A DNA stretch of 64,000 bases from Bdellovibrionales bacterium (GTDB lineage: Bacteria; Bdellovibrionota; Bdellovibrionia; Bdellovibrionales; UBA1609): contig JAHBUX010000001.1 of the NCBI GenBank assembly GCA_019637855.1, positions 16,754-80,753 of the forward strand, read 5' to 3'. The notes under the pieces were generated by a model. That model ran no database searches and was not told the DNA's origin. It saw nothing but the letters and a program-made list of their open reading frames with translations. Of this stretch, positions 46,058 to 54,234 are shown in pieces. The translations under genes were made by a program, and so were the position numbers. The stretch's first letter is position 1, and each line of letters opens with the position of its first letter.

Positions 46058-46984
46058 ATGAATTCGGTTATCTCCGTCAGTAATCTCAGTAAAACTTACG
46101 CCTCTGGATTTCACGCCCTGAAGAAGGTGAATCTGGCCATCCGTAAAGGCGAAATTTTCGCTCTGCTTGGACCCAATGGCGCGGGCAAAACCACGCTCAT
46201 CAACGTGATCTGCGGCATCGTCAATCCCAGTTCAGGTCAGGTCAGTGCGGACAGTCACGACATCCTACGCGACTACCGCGCCGCTCGACAAAAAATCGGC
46301 CTGGTTCCGCAAGAACTCGCAACGGATATGTTCGAGCGCGTGTGGGACACGGTGCGCTTTAGTCGTGGGCTGTTTGGTAAAGCTCCCGACGATGCGTACT
46401 GCGAAGAGGTTCTGAAGGAGCTGTCGCTTTGGGATAAGCGCGACAATAAGATCATGGCTTTGTCGGGCGGTATGAAACGCCGGGTGATGATCGCCAAGGC
46501 GCTTTCGCATGAACCTGAAATCCTGTTTTTGGATGAACCGACGGCCGGTGTGGACGTGGAACTCAGACGCGACATGTGGGAGATGGTGCGACGCCTGCGC
46601 CAACGTGGGGTCACCATCATTCTGACCACCCACTACATCGAAGAAGCCGAAGAGATGGCTGATCGCATCGGCGTGATCAGCGGCGGTGAAATCATCCTGG
46701 TCGAAGAAAAGCAGACCTTGATGAAAAAGCTGGGGAAAAAGCAACTGCTGCTTCAGCTACAAACACCGCTTGAGGCGATCCCTGCTGATTTGAGATCGGC
46801 GCAGCTAGAGCTTTCCGATGATCGCTTACAGATGATCTACACCTTTGATTCTCAGGCGGAACAGACTGGCATCGCTGCGCTCTTGAAACGCCTGGGCGAA
46901 CATGGCATCGACTTTAAAGATCTGAAGACCACCGAAAGCTCACTTGAGGATATCTTCGTGAAACTGGTGGGAGGAAGGCGATGA
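46058..46984 (+). CDS. ABC transporter ATP-binding protein (YadG-like)
   Basis: [30 protein letters not shown]. Confidence 0.93.
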
Positions 46985-47742
46985 ACTTTTACGCCATTAA
47001 AGCCATCTACCGTTTTGAGTTGGCGCGCTTCTTTCGCACTTTGTTTCAAAGCATCGCCTCACCGGTGATTTCAACATCGCTGTATTTTATCGTGTTTGGT
47101 TCGGCCATCGGCTCGCGCATGGAACAAATCGATGGCGTCACTTATGGTGCCTTTATCGTTCCAGGCTTGATTATGCTCTCCGTTTTGACCGAGAGCATAT
47201 CGAACGCCTCCTTCGGCATTTACATGCCCAAGTATTCCGGGACGATTTACGAAATTCTCTCGGCCCCGATTTCCGCCCTGGAGATCGTGATTGGCTTCGT
47301 GGGGGCAGCGGCTACCAAATCCGTTATCCTTGGCGCCATCATTTTGGCCACGGCCCGAGCCTTCGTGGATTACAACATCGCTCATCCTCTGTGGATGTTG
47401 GCGTTTTTGATTCTCACCTCGGTCACTTTCAGTCTGTTCGGCTTTATCATCGGCCTATGGGCCGATGGTTTTGAAAAACTGCAAGTGGTGCCCTTGATGA
47501 TTATGACGCCACTGACTTTCTTAGGCGGCAGTTTCTATTCGATCAATATGCTGCCGCCTTTCTGGCAGAAACTTTCGCTCTTCAATCCGGTGGTTTATCT
47601 GATCAGTGGTTTTCGCTGGAGTTTTTATGCCGTATCCGACGTCAGTGTCGGAGCCAGTCTCGGCATGACCATGGCGTTTTTGCTGATCTGTCTGGCCATC
47701 GTGTGGTGGATCTTTAAAACTGGATACCGTGTTAAGGTCTAA
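46981..47742 (+). CDS. ABC-2 transporter permease (YadH-like)
   Basis: [37 protein letters not shown]; overlaps the ATPase stop. Confidence 0.92.
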
Positions 47743-48981
47743 ATGAATCCGAAACGTCCCAATAATTTCTATCTGATCCTTATGCTGGGCTCACTCACCG
47801 CGCTGAGTCCGTTTTCGATCGACATGTATCTTCCGGCTTTTCCGAAGATCGCTTCTGACTTTGGCGTCAGCGTGACCGAAGTTTCGCTCTCACTGTCGAG
47901 CTACTTTATCGGCTTAGCCTGTGGTCAATTGTTCTACGGCCCCCTGCTCGATCGCTTTGGCCGCAAGCCCCCACTTTACGGAGGTTTGATTCTCTACATC
48001 TTAGCCACTCTGGGTTGTATGCTATCGCGCTCGATTGAAAGCTTAGTTGCGTTTCGCTGTCTGCAGGCGTTGGGCGGATGCGCGGCTCAAGTCGCGTCCG
48101 TCGCTATGGTACGCGACTTTTTTGAAGGTCGCGAGATGGCCAAGATTTTCTCTCTGTTGGTTCTGATCTTGGGCGTGTCGCCTCTACTAGCGCCGACCAC
48201 CGGCGCTTACCTGGCGGAACACTACGCCTGGCACTCCGTCTTTATCGCTTTGCTGATTATCGGCTGCGCGCTGCTGGCGATGGTGTTCTTCTTTTTGCCC
48301 GAGGGACATCAGCCTGATAAAAGCCAATCGCTGCGTTTGGGGCCGATCTTCAAAGGCTATTTTTCTATTCTGTCGCATCCGCGTTTTTACACGTACACAT
48401 TTGCGGGCGCCCTCGCCTTCTCGGGTCTGTTCGTCTATCTCGCGAGCTCACCGGTGGTGTTTTTGGAGATCTATAAAGTCCCACCTGAAACCTACGGCTG
48501 GATCTTTGGAATGTTGGCGGCAGGTCTGATCGGCTGCAGTCAGTTGAACATTCTATTGATGCGCAAGTTCAGCAGTGATCAGATTCTGGTCAGCAGCCTG
48601 ACCTTCGGTGCAATCATCACTTTGATCTTTATGACTGGCTCTTATCTTGGAGTATACGGCTTGTTCGGGACAATTCTACTGCTCTTCCTTTACCTTTCAT
48701 CGGCCGGTCTGGTGAACCCCAATGCAGCGTCCTTGGCGTTGGCACCGTTTGGCCGCAACGCCGGTAGTGCTTCAGCCTTGATGGGCTCAATCCAGATGAC
48801 CGTTGGCGCCATCGCCTCGACCGCAGTTGGTTTGGTGACGGTAAAAGAGATGTTCCCGTTTACAGTTATATTCGCGATCGCTGCCTCTTTAGGTCTGGCC
48901 GCTTTGCTGTTCGGTAAGAGCAAACATGACAAAGCCGCAGCGACGAGCCAAACTATTCTCAGTGAGCCTGAGAGTTTATAA
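47743..48981 (+). CDS. Bcr/CflA family multidrug MFS transporter
   Basis: IDMYLPAFP, GQLFYGPLLDRFGRKP, AGSASALMG. Confidence 0.92.
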   Translation: MNPKRPNNFYLILMLGSLTALSPFSIDMYLPAFPKIASDFGVSVTEVSLSLSSYFIGLACGQLFYGPLLDRFGRKPPLYGGLILYILATLGCMLSRSIESLVAFRCLQALGGCAAQVASVAMVRDFFEGREMAKIFSLLVLILGVSPLLAPTTGAYLAEHYAWHSVFIALLIIGCALLAMVFFFLPEGHQPDKSQSLRLGPIFKGYFSILSHPRFYTYTFAGALAFSGLFVYLASSPVVFLEIYKVPPETYGWIFGMLAAGLIGCSQLNILLMRKFSSDQILVSSLTFGAIITLIFMTGSYLGVYGLFGTILLLFLYLSSAGLVNPNAASLALAPFGRNAGSASALMGSIQMTVGAIASTAVGLVTVKEMFPFTVIFAIAASLGLAALLFGKSKHDKAAATSQTILSEPESL

Positions 48982-51040
48982 CCGCAAACGTAAGTTCGCC
49001 GAGACGCCGGAGCCGCGCGGAAAATCGCGCAAAGGCGGCAAGGGACTGCTGCGTTTTGTGGTGCAGATGCACGCAGCCACACGCCTGCATTTCGATCTGC
49101 GTCTGGAATTCGGCGGCGTTTTTAAAAGTTGGGCGGTGCCTAAGGGACCGTCGCTCAATCCCTTAGATCAGCGGCTGGCCGTTTTCGTCGAAGATCATCC
49201 CCTCGCCTACGGTTCTTTCGAAGGCATTATTCCCGGTGGCAACTACGGCGCCGGCACCGTTCTGCTATGGGATGAAGGAACTTACATCGAACGTGGTTCC
49301 AAGTCGCGCAAAGACAGCGAAGCAGCAGTCAAGAAGGCGTTTGAGAAGGGGCATATCACCTTCATTCTCAATGGCCACAAGCTCAAAGGCGAATTCGCCC
49401 TGATCAAGCTCAAGAAAGACCCAAAAGAGAAAGCTTGGTTGCTAGTGAAGAAACGCGATGAGCACTCCACCTATAAACGCAAAGGCATCAGGAACGATCT
49501 AAGTGTGAAAACCGGGCGCACCATCGAAGAGATCGCCGCCGAAGCTGAGGGCAAGAAAGAAGTGTGGTCATCCGGCCGCAAGGTGAAAGCGGCACCGCCT
49601 ACAATAAAGTCCACGTCCACGCCAAGAAATGAAAAGGCCGCTTTGCCCCGCAAGATCAAACCCATGCTCGCAACACTTTCTAACAAACCTTTGACTTCGA
49701 AAGGTTGGCTGTTTGAACACGCACCCAACGGCCTTAGAGCGCTAGCCGAAGTCGAGAAGACACGACGTCATCTGTATTCCAAATCAGGGCTGTCCTTTGA
49801 CAAGAAGTTCCCGCAAATCCTCGCCGCGCTGAAAGCCCAACCCACTCCGCTTCTGCTCGATGGTGAGGTCACCCAGTCCAAATCCGGCAACGCTATTTAT
49901 CACGTTTATGATTTGCTCTATGAAAACGGCAAAGATTTACGCAAGACCCCACTCAAGGAGCGGCGCGAGCGTCTTGCGCAAGTGTTAAAGACGGGAAAGC
50001 ACATTCAGCTGGTACCGACCTTGAAAGCTCAAGACAGTAAGACTCTCACCGTCGCCAAAAAAGAAAGCAGTCTTTATCACTCGGGCACTTCAAAAGAGTG
50101 GCTGCAATTGCCCGAAACTAAGAAGGGCGAGACCGGAACGACCAGCGCGGATGAGCCTCGGCTTACCAATCTGGACAAAATCTATTGGCCCAAAGAGCAA
50201 ATCACGAAGGGCGATCTGATCGCGTATTACAAATCCATAGCTCCCTACATCCTTCCACATCTGAAGGACCGACCGCAGTCGTTGAATCGTTTTCCCAACG
50301 GCATCGCGCGCCCTGGATTTTATCAGAAAGACGTAACCGGCCATATTCCGCGCTGGTTAAAGACCGAACGGATTTTCTCCGAATCCGCGGATAAATCCAT
50401 CGACTATGCTCTTTGCCAAGATGAGCGCAGTTTGTTGTATCTAGTGAACTTGGGCTGCATCGAAATGAATCCGTGGTTTTCACGCGTGGGACACCTAGAT
50501 CATCCTGATTTTTTGGTGATCGACTTGGACCCTGACGACAATGAGTTCTCCCATGTGATGGAAGTGGCGCTGGAAATCCATCGTGTTCTGGATGAAGTCG
50601 GTGCTCCCAACGCGTGTAAGACTTCCGGTGCAACGGGCATTCATATCGGCATACCCACTGGCGGGCGCTACGACTTTGATGAAGTGAGAGCGTTCGCCGA
50701 AGCCGTCTGCCGCGTGGTCCTTAAAAAATTTCCGGCCACCACTAGCATGGATCGCAGTCCCGCGCGCCGCCGGCACAAAATCTATCTGGACTGTATGCAA
50801 AACCGGCGTGCTCAAACCCTGGCCGCACCGTTTTGCGTGCGCCCACGTGAAGGGGCGCCAGTCTCCATGCCGCTCGCCTGGAAGGACCTGCACCCTCGAC
50901 TTAAGCCTGAACATTTCCACATTGGAAACGCATTGCAGCGTGTACAGAAGTTCGGCGATTCATGGAAGCTCGTGCTCGGTACACCGCTGAATCTCTCGAA
51001 GTGTTTGAAAAACCTCCGCAAGATCTACGACGAGGACTAA
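48962..51040 (+). CDS. ligD: LigD-like protein: intact phosphoesterase and polymerase domains, degenerate ligase domain
   Basis: PE motifs VQMHAATRLHFDLRLE, WAVPKGP, EDHP..Y..FEG. POL motifs TNLDKIYWP, VIDLDP, KTSG..GIH, YLDCMQN. Ligase motif I reads EHAPNG. GTG start 48962 inferred. Confidence 0.9.
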   Translation: MSLRVYNRKRKFAETPEPRGKSRKGGKGLLRFVVQMHAATRLHFDLRLEFGGVFKSWAVPKGPSLNPLDQRLAVFVEDHPLAYGSFEGIIPGGNYGAGTVLLWDEGTYIERGSKSRKDSEAAVKKAFEKGHITFILNGHKLKGEFALIKLKKDPKEKAWLLVKKRDEHSTYKRKGIRNDLSVKTGRTIEEIAAEAEGKKEVWSSGRKVKAAPPTIKSTSTPRNEKAALPRKIKPMLATLSNKPLTSKGWLFEHAPNGLRALAEVEKTRRHLYSKSGLSFDKKFPQILAALKAQPTPLLLDGEVTQSKSGNAIYHVYDLLYENGKDLRKTPLKERRERLAQVLKTGKHIQLVPTLKAQDSKTLTVAKKESSLYHSGTSKEWLQLPETKKGETGTTSADEPRLTNLDKIYWPKEQITKGDLIAYYKSIAPYILPHLKDRPQSLNRFPNGIARPGFYQKDVTGHIPRWLKTERIFSESADKSIDYALCQDERSLLYLVNLGCIEMNPWFSRVGHLDHPDFLVIDLDPDDNEFSHVMEVALEIHRVLDEVGAPNACKTSGATGIHIGIPTGGRYDFDEVRAFAEAVCRVVLKKFPATTSMDRSPARRRHKIYLDCMQNRRAQTLAAPFCVRPREGAPVSMPLAWKDLHPRLKPEHFHIGNALQRVQKFGDSWKLVLGTPLNLSKCLKNLRKIYDED

Positions 51041-51096
51041 AGTCCATCTCGCCATAAGTCGATGAGTGGTATGGACCACCGTTGAGGAGATTCACC

Positions 51097-51702
51097 ATGG
51101 CGAAGGCATCGGCGAAAACCAAAAAGATCGATCCATTCAAAACCAAGAAGACCAAAACGGAATCCAACGATGCCGGTGATACGCTGTCTCCTCCCGCTGA
51201 AGTCGCGGAAGCCATCGATGCTTTCCGTGAGGCCCAAGATCAAGCCAAACACTTTGAAGGCGAAGCCACCATTCACAAAAACACAATTCTTGGCTATTCA
51301 GAAAACGAGTACGTCAAACGACTCCTGTCGGGAAAAAACAATTCATTCAAGGTCCTGGGCGAAGAAACCATGGTTACGTATGTGGTCATGGATGCCAGTG
51401 CTGGGCTCACCGACGAAGACATCGAGGACTTCACCAACAACTTTGGCGCCAAGGCTGCGGAAGACTTAATCGTGCGCGATTTCGCCAGCATCAAGTTTGA
51501 CGCCAAGGTGCTAGAAGCCAACTACGAAGCGGTGGTGGAGGCCCTCCAGGCGTTACCCGCCGACGTGTTGGAAAATCTCTTTAAGCCCATGCTTTACAAA
51601 GCCCGTCCAGGCGCGGCTGAAGGCGCAAAGCATTATGCGAAAAAGGCCGACGATCTACTGGATATGTTGAAGGCGTTGCGCATTAAGAACTACATCCGCT
51701 AG
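51097..51702 (+). CDS. Hypothetical protein (basic N-tail, predicted long helix)
   Basis: Strong GAGGAG RBS before ATG 51097; no family recognised with confidence. Confidence 0.8.
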   Translation: MAKASAKTKKIDPFKTKKTKTESNDAGDTLSPPAEVAEAIDAFREAQDQAKHFEGEATIHKNTILGYSENEYVKRLLSGKNNSFKVLGEETMVTYVVMDASAGLTDEDIEDFTNNFGAKAAEDLIVRDFASIKFDAKVLEANYEAVVEALQALPADVLENLFKPMLYKARPGAAEGAKHYAKKADDLLDMLKALRIKNYIR

Positions 51703-51749
51703 GAAACGATTTGCCCTAAAAGAGGGCATCCGCCTATCTTCAGCGCCAC

Positions 51750-52376
51750 ATGCAATTGAGGAATGGGCTGCCAGGAATTTTTGAACCTACGATCTTTTCG
51801 CCACGCCGGAGATTTGTGCCACCGTCTGTGTATATCAAAGCCATGCACCCCAAAACGGAAATCAGTCCGACTCTGCCGGCGGTGGAAAAACTCTTAAAAG
51901 CCGGCTGGGCCGGCCAGATGAAAATTCACGGCCATCGCGCACAGATCCATTTGCCCGCCGATCCCAAACTGGAAGTTATTGCCTACAATCGTCAGGGACG
52001 GCCGCATAAAAAACTTCTACCCGAGGAGATTGTGGAGGAGTTGCGCCGGCTTATTCAACCCCAAAAAGGTTGGACCGTCATCGATTGCGAATGGCTCAAA
52101 CCTGAGAACAAACTGTTCCTATTTGATATTTTGAAAGACAGTGATGAGAATCTCCGTCGCCTTACCTATGCCGAACGCTACGAACTTCTCCCACGCGCCT
52201 ATATTTCCCCCTATATTCAAACCCTGCCGCTTTTAACCAGCCCCCGTAAATGCATGGATGTGCTGACCAGCGACGATGAACACAGCGAAGGTTTGGTTTT
52301 CAAATCACTGAACAGCAAAGGCTTTGAAGACACGTCGATCGTGCGTTGTCGCAAGAACCCCCGCTCTAGAAACTGA
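51750..52376 (+). CDS. Stand-alone ATP-dependent ligase-like nucleotidyltransferase domain (no OB fold)
   Basis: Motif I QMKIHGHRAQ, Ia AYNRQG, III VIDCEW, IIIa LFLFDIL, YAERYELL, IV EGLVFK. Start 51750 or 51843. Confidence 0.8.
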   Translation: MQLRNGLPGIFEPTIFSPRRRFVPPSVYIKAMHPKTEISPTLPAVEKLLKAGWAGQMKIHGHRAQIHLPADPKLEVIAYNRQGRPHKKLLPEEIVEELRRLIQPQKGWTVIDCEWLKPENKLFLFDILKDSDENLRRLTYAERYELLPRAYISPYIQTLPLLTSPRKCMDVLTSDDEHSEGLVFKSLNSKGFEDTSIVRCRKNPRSRN

Positions 52377-52398
52377 ACTTTTCTGCCGAAGAGTTCTT

Positions 52399-53265
52399 AT
52401 GTCCAAGATTTACGTAGGCATGTCCGGTTGGACCTTTGAAGGCTGGCGTGGGGGCTTTTACCCCAAAGGTTTGGCGCAAAAGAAAGAGCTCGAGTACGCG
52501 AGCCGCCAAGTCACGTCGATCGAAATCAACGGCACCTTCTATGCCTTGCAAAAGCCAGCCACCTTCGAACGCTGGTACGATGAAACACCGAAGAACTTCG
52601 TGTTTTCGATCAAAGCACCTAAGTACATCACGCATGTGCGCCGTCTCAAAGAGGTAGAAGAGCCGCTGGCCAACTTCTACGCTTCTGGGTTGCTGTGCTT
52701 AAAAGAAAAGATGGGCCCGGTGCTGTGGCAGTTTCCACCAACGGTAATGTTGAAAGACGATCGTTTTGAGAGGTTTCTCGAGCTTCTACCCTATGACGCC
52801 AAATCAGCCGCGCGCCTGGCCAAACAACACGGCGCCAAAGTCGAAGGTCGCAGCTACACTAAGGTCAGTGGTGATATTCCCATCCGCCACGCTTTCGAGT
52901 TTCGCAATCCTAGCTTCTGTAAACCTGAGTTTATCAGTCTGCTTCGCAAATACGGCGTGGCCGTGGTGTTCGCGCACTCGGGTTTGAAATCGCCTTACAT
53001 GGAAGACGTAACCGCCGACTTTGTTTACGCCCGCATGCATGGACAAGAGGGACCTTATAAAAATGGCTACCCTAAAGAATCCATCACCTGGCTTGCCGAC
53101 CGTCTTTGTCATTGGACCAAGGGCACTCAACCCACCGATGCTGACTGCATCTTGAGTGAGCCGCCTAAGGTGAAGAAGCGTGACGCCTTTGTCTACTTCG
53201 ACACCGAAGCCAAGGATCATGCGGCGACGGACGCATTGAATCTGCTGCAAGAACTCGGTCGGTAG
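52399..53265 (+). CDS. DUF72 (YecE-like TIM barrel) protein
   Basis: VGMSGW, EINGTFY, KAPKYITH, LWQFPP, EFRN.SF, TADFVYARMHG, YFD. Confidence 0.92.
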   Translation: MSKIYVGMSGWTFEGWRGGFYPKGLAQKKELEYASRQVTSIEINGTFYALQKPATFERWYDETPKNFVFSIKAPKYITHVRRLKEVEEPLANFYASGLLCLKEKMGPVLWQFPPTVMLKDDRFERFLELLPYDAKSAARLAKQHGAKVEGRSYTKVSGDIPIRHAFEFRNPSFCKPEFISLLRKYGVAVVFAHSGLKSPYMEDVTADFVYARMHGQEGPYKNGYPKESITWLADRLCHWTKGTQPTDADCILSEPPKVKKRDAFVYFDTEAKDHAATDALNLLQELGR

Positions 53266-53326
53266 ATCCCTCGGTTTGCCTGCTCTCGATCTCCAGTATA
53301 GTATTGGCCAGAAGAAGAGGTTTGCG

Positions 53327-53866
53327 ATGAAAAATACTTTATTTATTGTCGGCGCCGCTGGCTTAGCTTTGGTTCTGGCGATTGCATTTGCTTGGAACAC
53401 CAGCTCCACCGTAGAAGTCTCTCACGTCATCAACGCGCCTGTGGACAGAGTTTGGGTTCTTTGGAACGAACCGGAGAGCATGAAGCGTTGGTGGGGACCG
53501 AAACACTACACTGCCCCCGACATCGCCAATGATCTGCGCGAAGGCGGTATTTATCTTTTGGCAATGCAGGCTCCCGACGGCAAAGTTCATCGCAATGTTG
53601 GGCGCTACACAGAGATCATCGAAAAAAAGAAACTCGTTTCACAAATGGCTTTCGCCGATGAAGCGGGAAAGGCGATTCCGGCCAGCGCGGCGGGTCTTCC
53701 TGGCAAATGGCCCGATGAGATCACCGTGACTGTAGAGTTCGAGGATCTCGGAGACAAAACCAAAGTCACCGTCACTGAAACCGGAATTCCATCGATTATG
53801 TATATCTTTGCAAAAATGGGTTGGAAGCAGCAGTTCGCTAAAATCGATCAGATGATCGAAAATTAA
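53327..53866 (+). CDS. SRPBCC/AHSA1 domain protein with N-terminal signal/TM
   Basis: INAPVDRVW, WWGP, DLREGG, GW...F..I. Confidence 0.85.
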   Translation: MKNTLFIVGAAGLALVLAIAFAWNTSSTVEVSHVINAPVDRVWVLWNEPESMKRWWGPKHYTAPDIANDLREGGIYLLAMQAPDGKVHRNVGRYTEIIEKKKLVSQMAFADEAGKAIPASAAGLPGKWPDEITVTVEFEDLGDKTKVTVTETGIPSIMYIFAKMGWKQQFAKIDQMIEN

Positions 53867-53949
53867 TGACTCAGCTGCTTGCGTCTTTCGGAACTCTTGG
53901 CCGCAGCAACAATCTCTTGTAGTAGTCAGGGCACTCACAGGAGACATAG

Positions 53950-54234
53950 ATGAACTTCTTCCTCTGGCTCGGCCGCTTTGAAGGGATTTCGGTTTTAATC
54001 TTATTTTTTGTGGCTATGCCCTTGAAATACATGATGGGCTTACCCGAAGCCGTACGTTGGGTGGGTATGATCCACGGCATTCTGTTTTTAATGTACATTT
54101 TTACGGCCTACTCGATCTCACAGGAAGAAAATTGGCCGGGCAAAAAGCTGCTGATGTGCGTACTGCTGTCATCGCTTCCATTCGGTACCTTTTATTTCGA
54201 AAGCCGATATTTAAAACCACAGACGCAGACATGA
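53950..54234 (+). CDS. DUF3817 membrane protein
   Basis: EGIS..LFFVAMPLKY, GMIHG.LF, PFGTF. Confidence 0.85.
   Translation: MNFFLWLGRFEGISVLILFFVAMPLKYMMGLPEAVRWVGMIHGILFLMYIFTAYSISQEENWPGKKLLMCVLLSSLPFGTFYFESRYLKPQTQT

Follow-up and report, generated by a model that had tools for sequence, protein, structure and literature searches.

A stretch of 64,000 nucleotides (nt) from a Bdellovibrionales bacterium (GenBank assembly GCA_019637855.1, contig JAHBUX010000001.1), hereafter called the window and corresponding to C1:16754-80753 of the source genome G000, contains a cassette of four genes in one orientation. They encode a paralog of the end-joining enzyme LigD (LigDx), a protein of no described family (unk206), a ligase reduced to its nucleotidyltransferase (NTase) domain (miniLig) and a DUF72 protein. 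In bacterial nonhomologous end joining (NHEJ), a LigD with phosphoesterase (PE), ligase (LIG) and polymerase (POL) modules is normally coupled with Ku. On balance, our comparisons favor the view that the cassette is an accessory, horizontally patchy strand-break repair operon of the Bdellovibrionota, which would be derived from a PE-LIG-POL LigD and in which a ligase module of two genes would have taken over the function of the ligase of LigD itself. The features of the cassette, as identified from the listing of open reading frames and from domain matches, are as follows.

48962..51040, + strand: LigDx, LigD paralog of 692 amino acid residues with the order PE, dead ligase remnant, POL; GTG start, longest open reading frame from 48926
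48965..49480, + strand: PE (3'-phosphoesterase) domain of LigDx, residues 14-185 of the 704-residue frame; PF13298, TIGR02777
49640..50119, + strand: degenerate ligase NTase remnant of LigDx, residues 239-398; alignments, TIGR02779 below cut-off
50156..50995, + strand: POL (primase-polymerase) domain of LigDx, residues 411-690; PF21686, TIGR02778
51097..51702, + strand: unk206, 201 residues, family not described; ATG start, longer frame from 51082
51750..52376, + strand: miniLig, 208 residues, ATP-dependent ligase consisting of the NTase domain alone; PF01068, PF09414
52399..53265, + strand: DUF72 TIM-barrel protein, 288 residues, facultative fourth gene; ATG start, longer frame from 52324; PF01904

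The gaps between the genes for LigDx, unk206, miniLig and DUF72 are 56, 47 and 22 nt, respectively. The start codons chosen were those common to the orthologs (MSLRVY... for LigDx, MAK... for unk206 and MSKIYVG... for DUF72), and the ATG of unk206 lies 7 nt downstream of GAGGAG. The original prediction, made from the sequence of the window, had described four co-oriented and closely spaced genes, a LigD that kept PE and POL with an eroded ligase module, and a 208-residue protein made only of an NTase domain with its motif I lysine. All three descriptions hold: the arrangement recurs in 38 further loci, and the domain scores and alignments given below bear out the rest.

BLASTP between LigDx and the canonical LigD of this genome gave identities of 32%/30%. 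Its PE domain scored 136 bits with PF13298 and 203.7 with TIGR02777 (cut-off 144), and its POL domain scored 285.7 bits with PF21686 and 232 with TIGR02778 (cut-off 214.7). The PE residues H49, H55, D57, R59, H91 and Y95 and the POL residues D533, D535, H573 and D622 (DxD...D), which we take to be the catalytic positions of studied LigDs, were invariant in the ortholog alignment. The ligase module, however, scored 67.9 bits with TIGR02779 against a cut-off of 227.75, its match to PF01068 was confined to model positions 111-173, and the whole-protein models remained below their cut-offs (535 vs 895 and 313 vs 373). At the site of motif I, EHAPNGLR of LigDx was aligned with EIKFDGYR of the canonical LigD, and thus the motif I lysine is missing. 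In addition, LigDx had neither the loop between motifs III and IIIa nor the Glu-Gly of motif IV nor the lysines of motif V. The ~100 residues that form the OB domain between motif V and POL of the canonical LigD were also absent; as only ~15 residues connect the motif V region to POL in LigDx, the OB domain is gone. The functional ligase core of LigD (NHEJ ligase D, TIGR02776/PRK05972), which consists of a motif I lysine in an NTase domain plus an OB domain, is therefore not found in LigDx. One BLASTP alignment with the canonical LigD covered PE and went on across the ligase region, demonstrating that the remnant is derived from a genuine LigD ligase.

The same pattern was found throughout the LigDx orthologs. 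The OB domain was absent from all 29 full-length orthologs and the motif I lysine from 28 of them, the exception being the ortholog of genome G040 with EPKLDGLR. The mean pairwise identities among the 29 sequences were 0.64 for PE, 0.55 for POL, 0.34 for the ligase remnant and 0.28 for linker 1, and no stop codons were found; PE had 48 and POL 46 invariant columns. The ligase remnant is a vestige that evolves almost as fast as the linker. Moreover, it was deleted in two lineages, represented by the loci L077 (genome G180) and L086, both of which retain unk206 and miniLig. In LigDx of G180, PE (residues 1-206) is connected to POL through ~50 residues.

The candidate for the active ligase is miniLig, whose score with PF01068 was 34.9 bits (cut-off 26.2) and with PF09414 (RNA_ligase) 32.2 bits. 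Its AlphaFold2 model (pLDDT 90, pTM 0.82) consisted of the NTase domain alone, and Foldseek matched this model with the adenylation domains of LIG4, LIG1, LIG3 and archaeal ligases (E values down to 1.8e-10, TMq 0.57-0.67). Among the best 50 Foldseek matches listed, all were DNA ligases except two chains of the CRM1 export complex, and none was an RNA ligase. The sequence was remote from PDB profiles, of which the best was 3qwu at 3.9e-4, with LIG1 at ~1e-3. In the alignment with human LIG1, Lys58 coincided with the motif I lysine. Across 26 miniLig sequences, K58-x-H-G-H-R, E114-W-x-K, F125-D, E180-G-L-V-F and I197-x-R-C-R were invariant; motifs I (here K58-I-H-G-H-R), III, IIIa and IV are thus invariant. 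Near the N-terminus of miniLig, the peptide LPGIFExTIFS is also conserved. With the NTase fold, the motif I lysine and motifs III, IIIa, IV and V, miniLig possesses the features of an ATP-dependent DNA ligase. The C-termini of all orthologs were found 7-10 residues past motif V, so that miniLig has neither an OB domain nor motif VI. BLASTP between miniLig and the canonical LigD gave an E value of 0.028 across 31 residues, arguing that miniLig is no recent split-off from LigD.

In Pfam, NCBIfam, PHROGs and PADLOC, no family was found for unk206. With phmmer, 1.84 billion representatives were searched exhaustively, and 99 unk206 clusters were identified, whose polypeptides were mostly ~200 and at most 261 residues long, with some short partial sequences; fused forms were not found among them. 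A 423-residue open frame in genome G421, which was considered as a fusion of unk206 with miniLig, was rejected because it merely contains an upstream open stretch. The identities among unk206 homologs across the phylum ranged from 52 to 78%, making unk206 the best-conserved gene of the cassette. Its N-terminal tail is basic (Lys/Arg-rich) and disordered and contains a PFKT+K motif, which distant members share as well. A helix of 44 residues precedes the core, which is alpha/beta and acidic, with an isoelectric point (pI) of 4.9; miniLig and LigDx are basic. The predicted secondary structure is mainly helical with five short strands. The structure model was confident, and no fold match of any kind, Ku included, was found for it; similarly, unk206 showed neither the Ku core fold nor a match to PF02735. 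When all 64 members of the unk206 alignment A2 were compared with Pfam, the matches were scattered and weak (DUF7376 in 4 of the 64, best E value 4e-4), and those with PHROGs were likewise scattered. The profile built from this alignment added just two marginal matches within the phylum sample, suggesting that the distant unk206 subfamilies lie outside the sampled genomes, and a search with a further profile (A6) yielded 6 proteins only. In ESM-Atlas, the feature clusters nearest to unk206 were phage hypothetical proteins (score 0.95); recognition was below the mark, and the match is a lead only. In the complex predictions of miniLig with unk206, which were run without controls, the ipSAE values were 0.25 and 0.00, the mark being 0.32.

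The association of these genes was assessed in three sets of genomes, which overlap and in which related genomes are not independent. Among 60 relatives of the same genus and order, miniLig was found in 6, including 5 of the 17 from the same genus and 1 from another family of the order. LigDx, unk206 and miniLig were syntenic in all 6 loci, the flanks differed, and the copy from the other family was as close as the same-genus copies. In the phylum sample, unk206 was identified in 22 of 401 genomes, belonging to 17 genera. Around the 21 copies other than that of the window, miniLig was adjacent in all 21 and LigDx in 19; the two exceptions were a locus that is cut and one with an inserted AAA_14 gene. 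The latter gene, which encodes an ATPase of 422 residues, is located between LigDx and unk206 in L048 (G180:C70, 8426-9694, - strand), i.e., in the same lineage that has totally lost the LigDx ligase remnant. All 20 genomes with a match to the LigDx clade (E<=1e-100; 331 genomes searched) also carried unk206. A pattern scan of the GTDB species genomes gave 38 loci, all from metagenome-assembled genomes (MAGs) labeled as Bdellovibrionales, Pseudobdellovibrionaceae, Bacteriovoracia, Oligoflexales, Silvanigrellales or with older proteobacterial names. In these loci, miniLig followed unk206 in 37 (one cut) and LigDx preceded unk206 in 35 (three cut). Thus, wherever sequence exists, both are syntenic with unk206 (LigDx 35/35, miniLig 37/37). 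The gene order was retained down to LigDx identities of 38–41%, and its conservation across the 38 loci rules out a chance arrangement. Local variants were also observed: in a single MAG (L070, JBDSKY010000081.1, 1697-3832) LigDx is inverted relative to unk206-miniLig-DUF72, and in L082 and L087 an insertion of ~0.9 kb separates unk206 from miniLig.

The product of the fourth gene is a clear DUF72 protein, as its score with PF01904 was 217.5 bits (cut-off 25.3; model positions 1-216 of 217) and its E value with PDB entry 1vpq (TM1631) was 1.3e-15. In the 38 GTDB loci, DUF72 followed miniLig in 24, was absent from the fetched span in 11 and was cut off in 3, so that it is found in 24 of the 35 loci that reach far enough; in the phylum sample, it was present in 14 of the 21 loci other than that of the window. 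DUF72 genes occurred in 149 of the 401 phylum genomes, with extra copies in several cassette genomes. Hence, DUF72, counted originally as a member of the module, is a frequent but not an obligatory member of the cassette. One report places DUF72 among the TIM barrels, as a close relative of UV-damage endonuclease (UVDE) that is enriched near polB2 damage-response genes (PMC11791011), and in another it was modeled with DNA in the manner of Endo IV (PMC3828134). No linkage of DUF72 to a LigD-type operon was found in the literature pairing DUF72 with a ligase.

The original prediction had called the module Ku-less. A PF02735 search of the whole genome found no ku in the window, in agreement with that prediction; the single match (C1:643420-643971) is ~577 kb from the window. 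This match, however, belongs to a canonical ku-ligD operon (C1:643387-646609; L003 78-3300), in which a 289-residue ku overlaps the start of ligD, and the encoded LigD (789 residues, PE-LIG-POL) has the intact motif I EIKFDGYR. The source genome is therefore not Ku-less, but the description is valid for most of the clade: Ku was found in 67 of the 401 phylum genomes, yet the 22 cassette genomes included just 3 with Ku (G000, G331 and G208), and 16 of the 19 cassette genomes without a Ku match are at least 90% complete. Among the cassette carriers, a second, canonical LigD was likewise confined to these three genomes; none was found in the 17 Ku-negative carriers of the 331-genome sample. Of the canonical LigDs compared, the Ku-linked one of G208 came nearest to LigDx, with 47% identity. 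Without an adjacent ku and with Ku in so few cassette genomes, LigDx does not show the Ku partnership of LigD, and the module is Ku-independent in most of its hosts. Among the reservations that had accompanied the original prediction, two concern the gene content. That the genes do not co-occur elsewhere is contradicted by the synteny in the 38 Bdellovibrionota loci. That an intact ku-ligD pair exists and LigDx is simply decaying is correct in its first half, and the second half is contradicted by the conservation. The suggestion that ligation was handed to the mini-ligase fits the comparative data, as miniLig is adjacent in every locus with sequence, its motifs are invariant and the LigDx remnant is deleted in two lineages.

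Besides LigDx, miniLig and the canonical LigD, the source genome contains two further ATP-dependent ligase genes. One encodes a LigB-type ATP-dependent ligase of 535 residues (G000:C12, L002 1111-2718, - strand) and is flanked by genes for an Lhr-like helicase and a metallo-hydrolase-like protein; this gene group resembles the known ligase-associated damage-response operon. The other encodes an NTase-only ATP-dependent ligase of 243 residues (G000:C23, L004 1291-2022, + strand; PF01068 93.7 bits; motif I KYDGYR), which has a hydrophobic N-terminal segment, stops right past motif V and possesses no OB domain. It adjoins a gene for a 291-residue HNH-motif protein in a context unrelated to the cassette.

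Distant relatives of unk206 and miniLig also occurred as a pair. P0340, which is 28% identical to unk206, was found on two metagenome contigs, L110 and L111. A miniLig homolog of 201 residues (44% identity; PF01068 42 bits) begins 54 nt downstream of it. No LigDx-like sequence was found within 6 kb on either side of this pair, of which a second, diverged copy is on L112. Given that the pair occurs at this level of unk206 identity without LigDx, the unk206-miniLig pair looks like the older unit. Its neighbors on L111 (1717-12125) encode ArdC-like (ArdcN plus zincin peptidase), ClpP-like, Thg1-like, methyltransferase and ThiF-like proteins, and the region may be a mobile element. The pair is 3 kb from the gene for the Thg1-like 3'-5' polymerase. 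A phage or plasmid origin of unk206 and miniLig was also considered: searches with tblastn for unk206, P0297, P0321, P0340 and miniLig returned nothing in 50,697 phage records or in plasmid collections, five pattern scans of IMG/VR found no relative, and the window proteins had no match in PADLOC or PHROGs.

Under the favored reading, a LigD with PE, LIG and POL modules would have gained a neighboring two-gene ligase module. Its own ligase would then have become redundant and lost the lysine and the OB domain, with the remnant now disappearing. During repair, the UVDE/Endo IV-like barrel of DUF72, where present, would make the incision, PE of LigDx would clean the 3' ends, POL would fill in, probably with ribonucleotides, and miniLig, adenylylated at Lys58, would seal the break. 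The obligatory partner of miniLig would be unk206, which might take the role of the OB or C-terminal domain of other ligases and/or tether miniLig via its basic tail and acidic core. The absence of a Ku match and of a second LigD from most carriers, together with the linkage to a putative lesion endonuclease, favors Ku-independent nick or gap (excision-type) repair over two-ended NHEJ. More tentative is a broader proposal, which we regard as possible but rather doubtful: unk206 and miniLig would be the two subunits of a polynucleotide ligase not recognized before, with a new fold in unk206 giving in trans what the OB domain gives in cis, and this ligase would have captured LigD in the Bdellovibrionota and made its ligase redundant, leading to complete Ku-free break repair by PE, POL, the trans ligase and optionally DUF72.

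Several observations weigh against the favored reading. Motif I of miniLig is KxHGxR instead of the canonical KxDGxR, and its motif V is RCR(K). The OB domain and motif VI of known DNA ligases, both missing from miniLig, contribute to adenylylation and nick binding. With these noncanonical motifs and without OB domain and motif VI, miniLig might be inactive or act on RNA. The acidic core of unk206 is unexpected for a DNA clamp. As 11 of 35 loci are without DUF72, which is also common elsewhere in the phylum, the excision-repair interpretation builds on a facultative member with a putative function. Given the canonical Ku-LigD of the source genome, the cassette may cooperate with Ku there. Moreover, every carrier is a MAG or a metagenome contig, and only one independent lineage of the distant pair was seen in context (L110/L111 and L112).

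The competing explanations differ in the role of unk206 and in the substrate of miniLig. In Ku-independent joining of double-strand breaks, the model of the original prediction, unk206 would be an end binder or synapsis factor in place of Ku, miniLig the ligase and LigDx the end processor. The scarcity of Ku and of second LigDs among the carriers, the LigD/NHEJ type of the POL domain, and the conserved Lys/Arg-rich tail and overall conservation of unk206 are all compatible with this explanation. We nevertheless consider it unlikely, as unk206 resembles neither Ku nor any DNA-end binder in fold or sequence and has an acidic core, the distant lineage pairs unk206 with a ligase and not with LigDx, and the linkage to DUF72 points to nicks and gaps. 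Repair of RNA or of RNA-DNA hybrids appears still less probable. Here, miniLig would be an enzyme of the RNA-ligase type that seals RNA or 3'-ribo ends, with PE healing 2',3'-cyclic or 3'-phosphate ends and POL adding ribonucleotides. The near-equal scores of miniLig with PF09414 and PF01068 and the Thg1-like gene near the distant pair agree with such a role, as does KIHGHR of miniLig, which presumably resembles KxHGxN of Rnl2-type ligases. According to a review, RNA ligases also use accessory domains other than OB (PMC7470946). It is, however, DNA ligases that dominate the listed structural matches of miniLig, LigDx is truly derived from LigD, and DUF72 has been likened to DNA endonucleases.

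A function in mobile elements or conflict, e.g., protecting or processing incoming or invader DNA with the pair as phage or conjugative cargo, would account for the patchy distribution (5 of 17 genomes in the genus), the closeness of the copy from another family, the variable flanks, the ArdC-like anti-restriction gene and the ClpP-like gene beside the distant pair and, as a lead, the phage hypothetical proteins near unk206 in ESM-Atlas. The empty searches of the PADLOC, PHROGs, phage, plasmid and IMG/VR collections and the lack of an integrase or transposase beside the window copy render this very improbable. Finally, LigDx could be a decaying paralog next to unrelated genes, redundant beside the canonical ku-ligD operon of the same genome. 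The rapid evolution of the ligase remnant, close to that of the linker, agrees with decay; however, the strong constraint on PE and POL, the gene order kept across distant loci and the absence of another LigD and of Ku from most carriers leave hardly any room for this explanation.

The cassette is surrounded in the window by genes for an ABC transporter pair, an MFS transporter, AHSA1-like, DUF3817 and MsrQ/MsrP-like proteins and an MscS-like channel. No integrase or transposase gene was found beside it, and its GC content is the same as that of the flanks. The last 20 nt of the upstream MFS transporter gene (48962-48981) are also the first of LigDx, counted from its GTG start, suggesting that the cassette may be co-transcribed with the transporter here. 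A scan for promoters and terminators (47500-54000) found sites no more numerous than in shuffled sequences, and the operon boundaries are thus derived from spacing only. No sequencing runs, of RNA or otherwise, were listed for 48962-53265. The upstream ABC ATPase/permease pair (46058-47742 of the window) is 80% identical to a pair in L046 (G137:C13, 13075-15689), which is just downstream of the displaced DUF72 gene of a cassette in a genome of another family; this likeness could stem from a local synteny common to the two genomes or from co-transfer.

In textbooks, bacterial LigD exemplifies an end-joining enzyme that is self-contained and depends on Ku. The LigDs of the clade described here gave up ligation as a group, always together with an OB-less minimal ligase and a protein of no known fold, and mostly without a Ku match. 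If the pair is an active ligase, it would represent a new ligase architecture, in which the accessory module acts in trans and is not an OB fold, a natural case of non-orthologous displacement of a domain within a multidomain repair enzyme, and a compact Ku-free repair kit for genome-engineering hosts. DUF72, among the oldest unassigned families, would also gain a testable repair context. As all cassette genes are short and can be synthesized, the question is directly testable.

No description of the cassette arrangement was found in the literature on LigD in Bdellovibrio or on LigD with a missing or inactive ligase, although supplementary neighborhood tables could hold one. Its fourth gene is a clear member of the DUF72/TM1631 (PDB 1vpq) or YecE family. 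LigDx has the same PE and POL domains in the same order as the LigD of canonical Ku-LigD NHEJ, including that of Pseudomonas, Mycobacterium and the operon of the source genome itself. Different from canonical NHEJ, the ligase of LigDx has neither the lysine nor the OB domain and is sometimes deleted, no ku is adjacent, two obligatory genes, unk206 and miniLig, are added, and 19 of 22 carriers are without a Ku match. In the archaeon Methanocella, the NHEJ gene set is split, with ligase, polymerase and nuclease encoded apart. Similar to the cassette, the split NHEJ gene sets of Streptomyces have ligase, polymerase and nuclease on separate genes (PMC5124664). The sets of Streptomyces and Methanocella, however, retain Ku and a full ligase with NTase and OB domains, whereas the cassette combines an OB-less ligase with a new protein and still has a dead ligase as a vestige inside LigD.

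The kinetoplastid RNA-editing ligase REL1 with KREPA2 is, similar to the proposed pair, an OB-less ligase that relies on a separately encoded partner, according to the reports (PMC4366279, PMC9891256). The partner of REL1 is described there as an OB-fold protein, whereas unk206 is mainly helical without a fold match, and REL1 is eukaryotic and acts on RNA. In mycobacterial excision repair by LigC/Prim-PolC, the ligase is apart from the archaeo-eukaryotic primase (AEP)-type primase-polymerase, the gaps come from excision enzymes and the fill-in is with ribonucleotides (PMC7470946). In this review, LigC has a normal NTase plus OB core and also needs Ku for activity, Prim-PolC carries no PE fusion, and a partner resembling unk206 is not mentioned. 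With these differences, the LigC/Prim-PolC complex is the closest functional analog of the favored reading, Ku-independent excision-type repair by LigDx, unk206 and miniLig.

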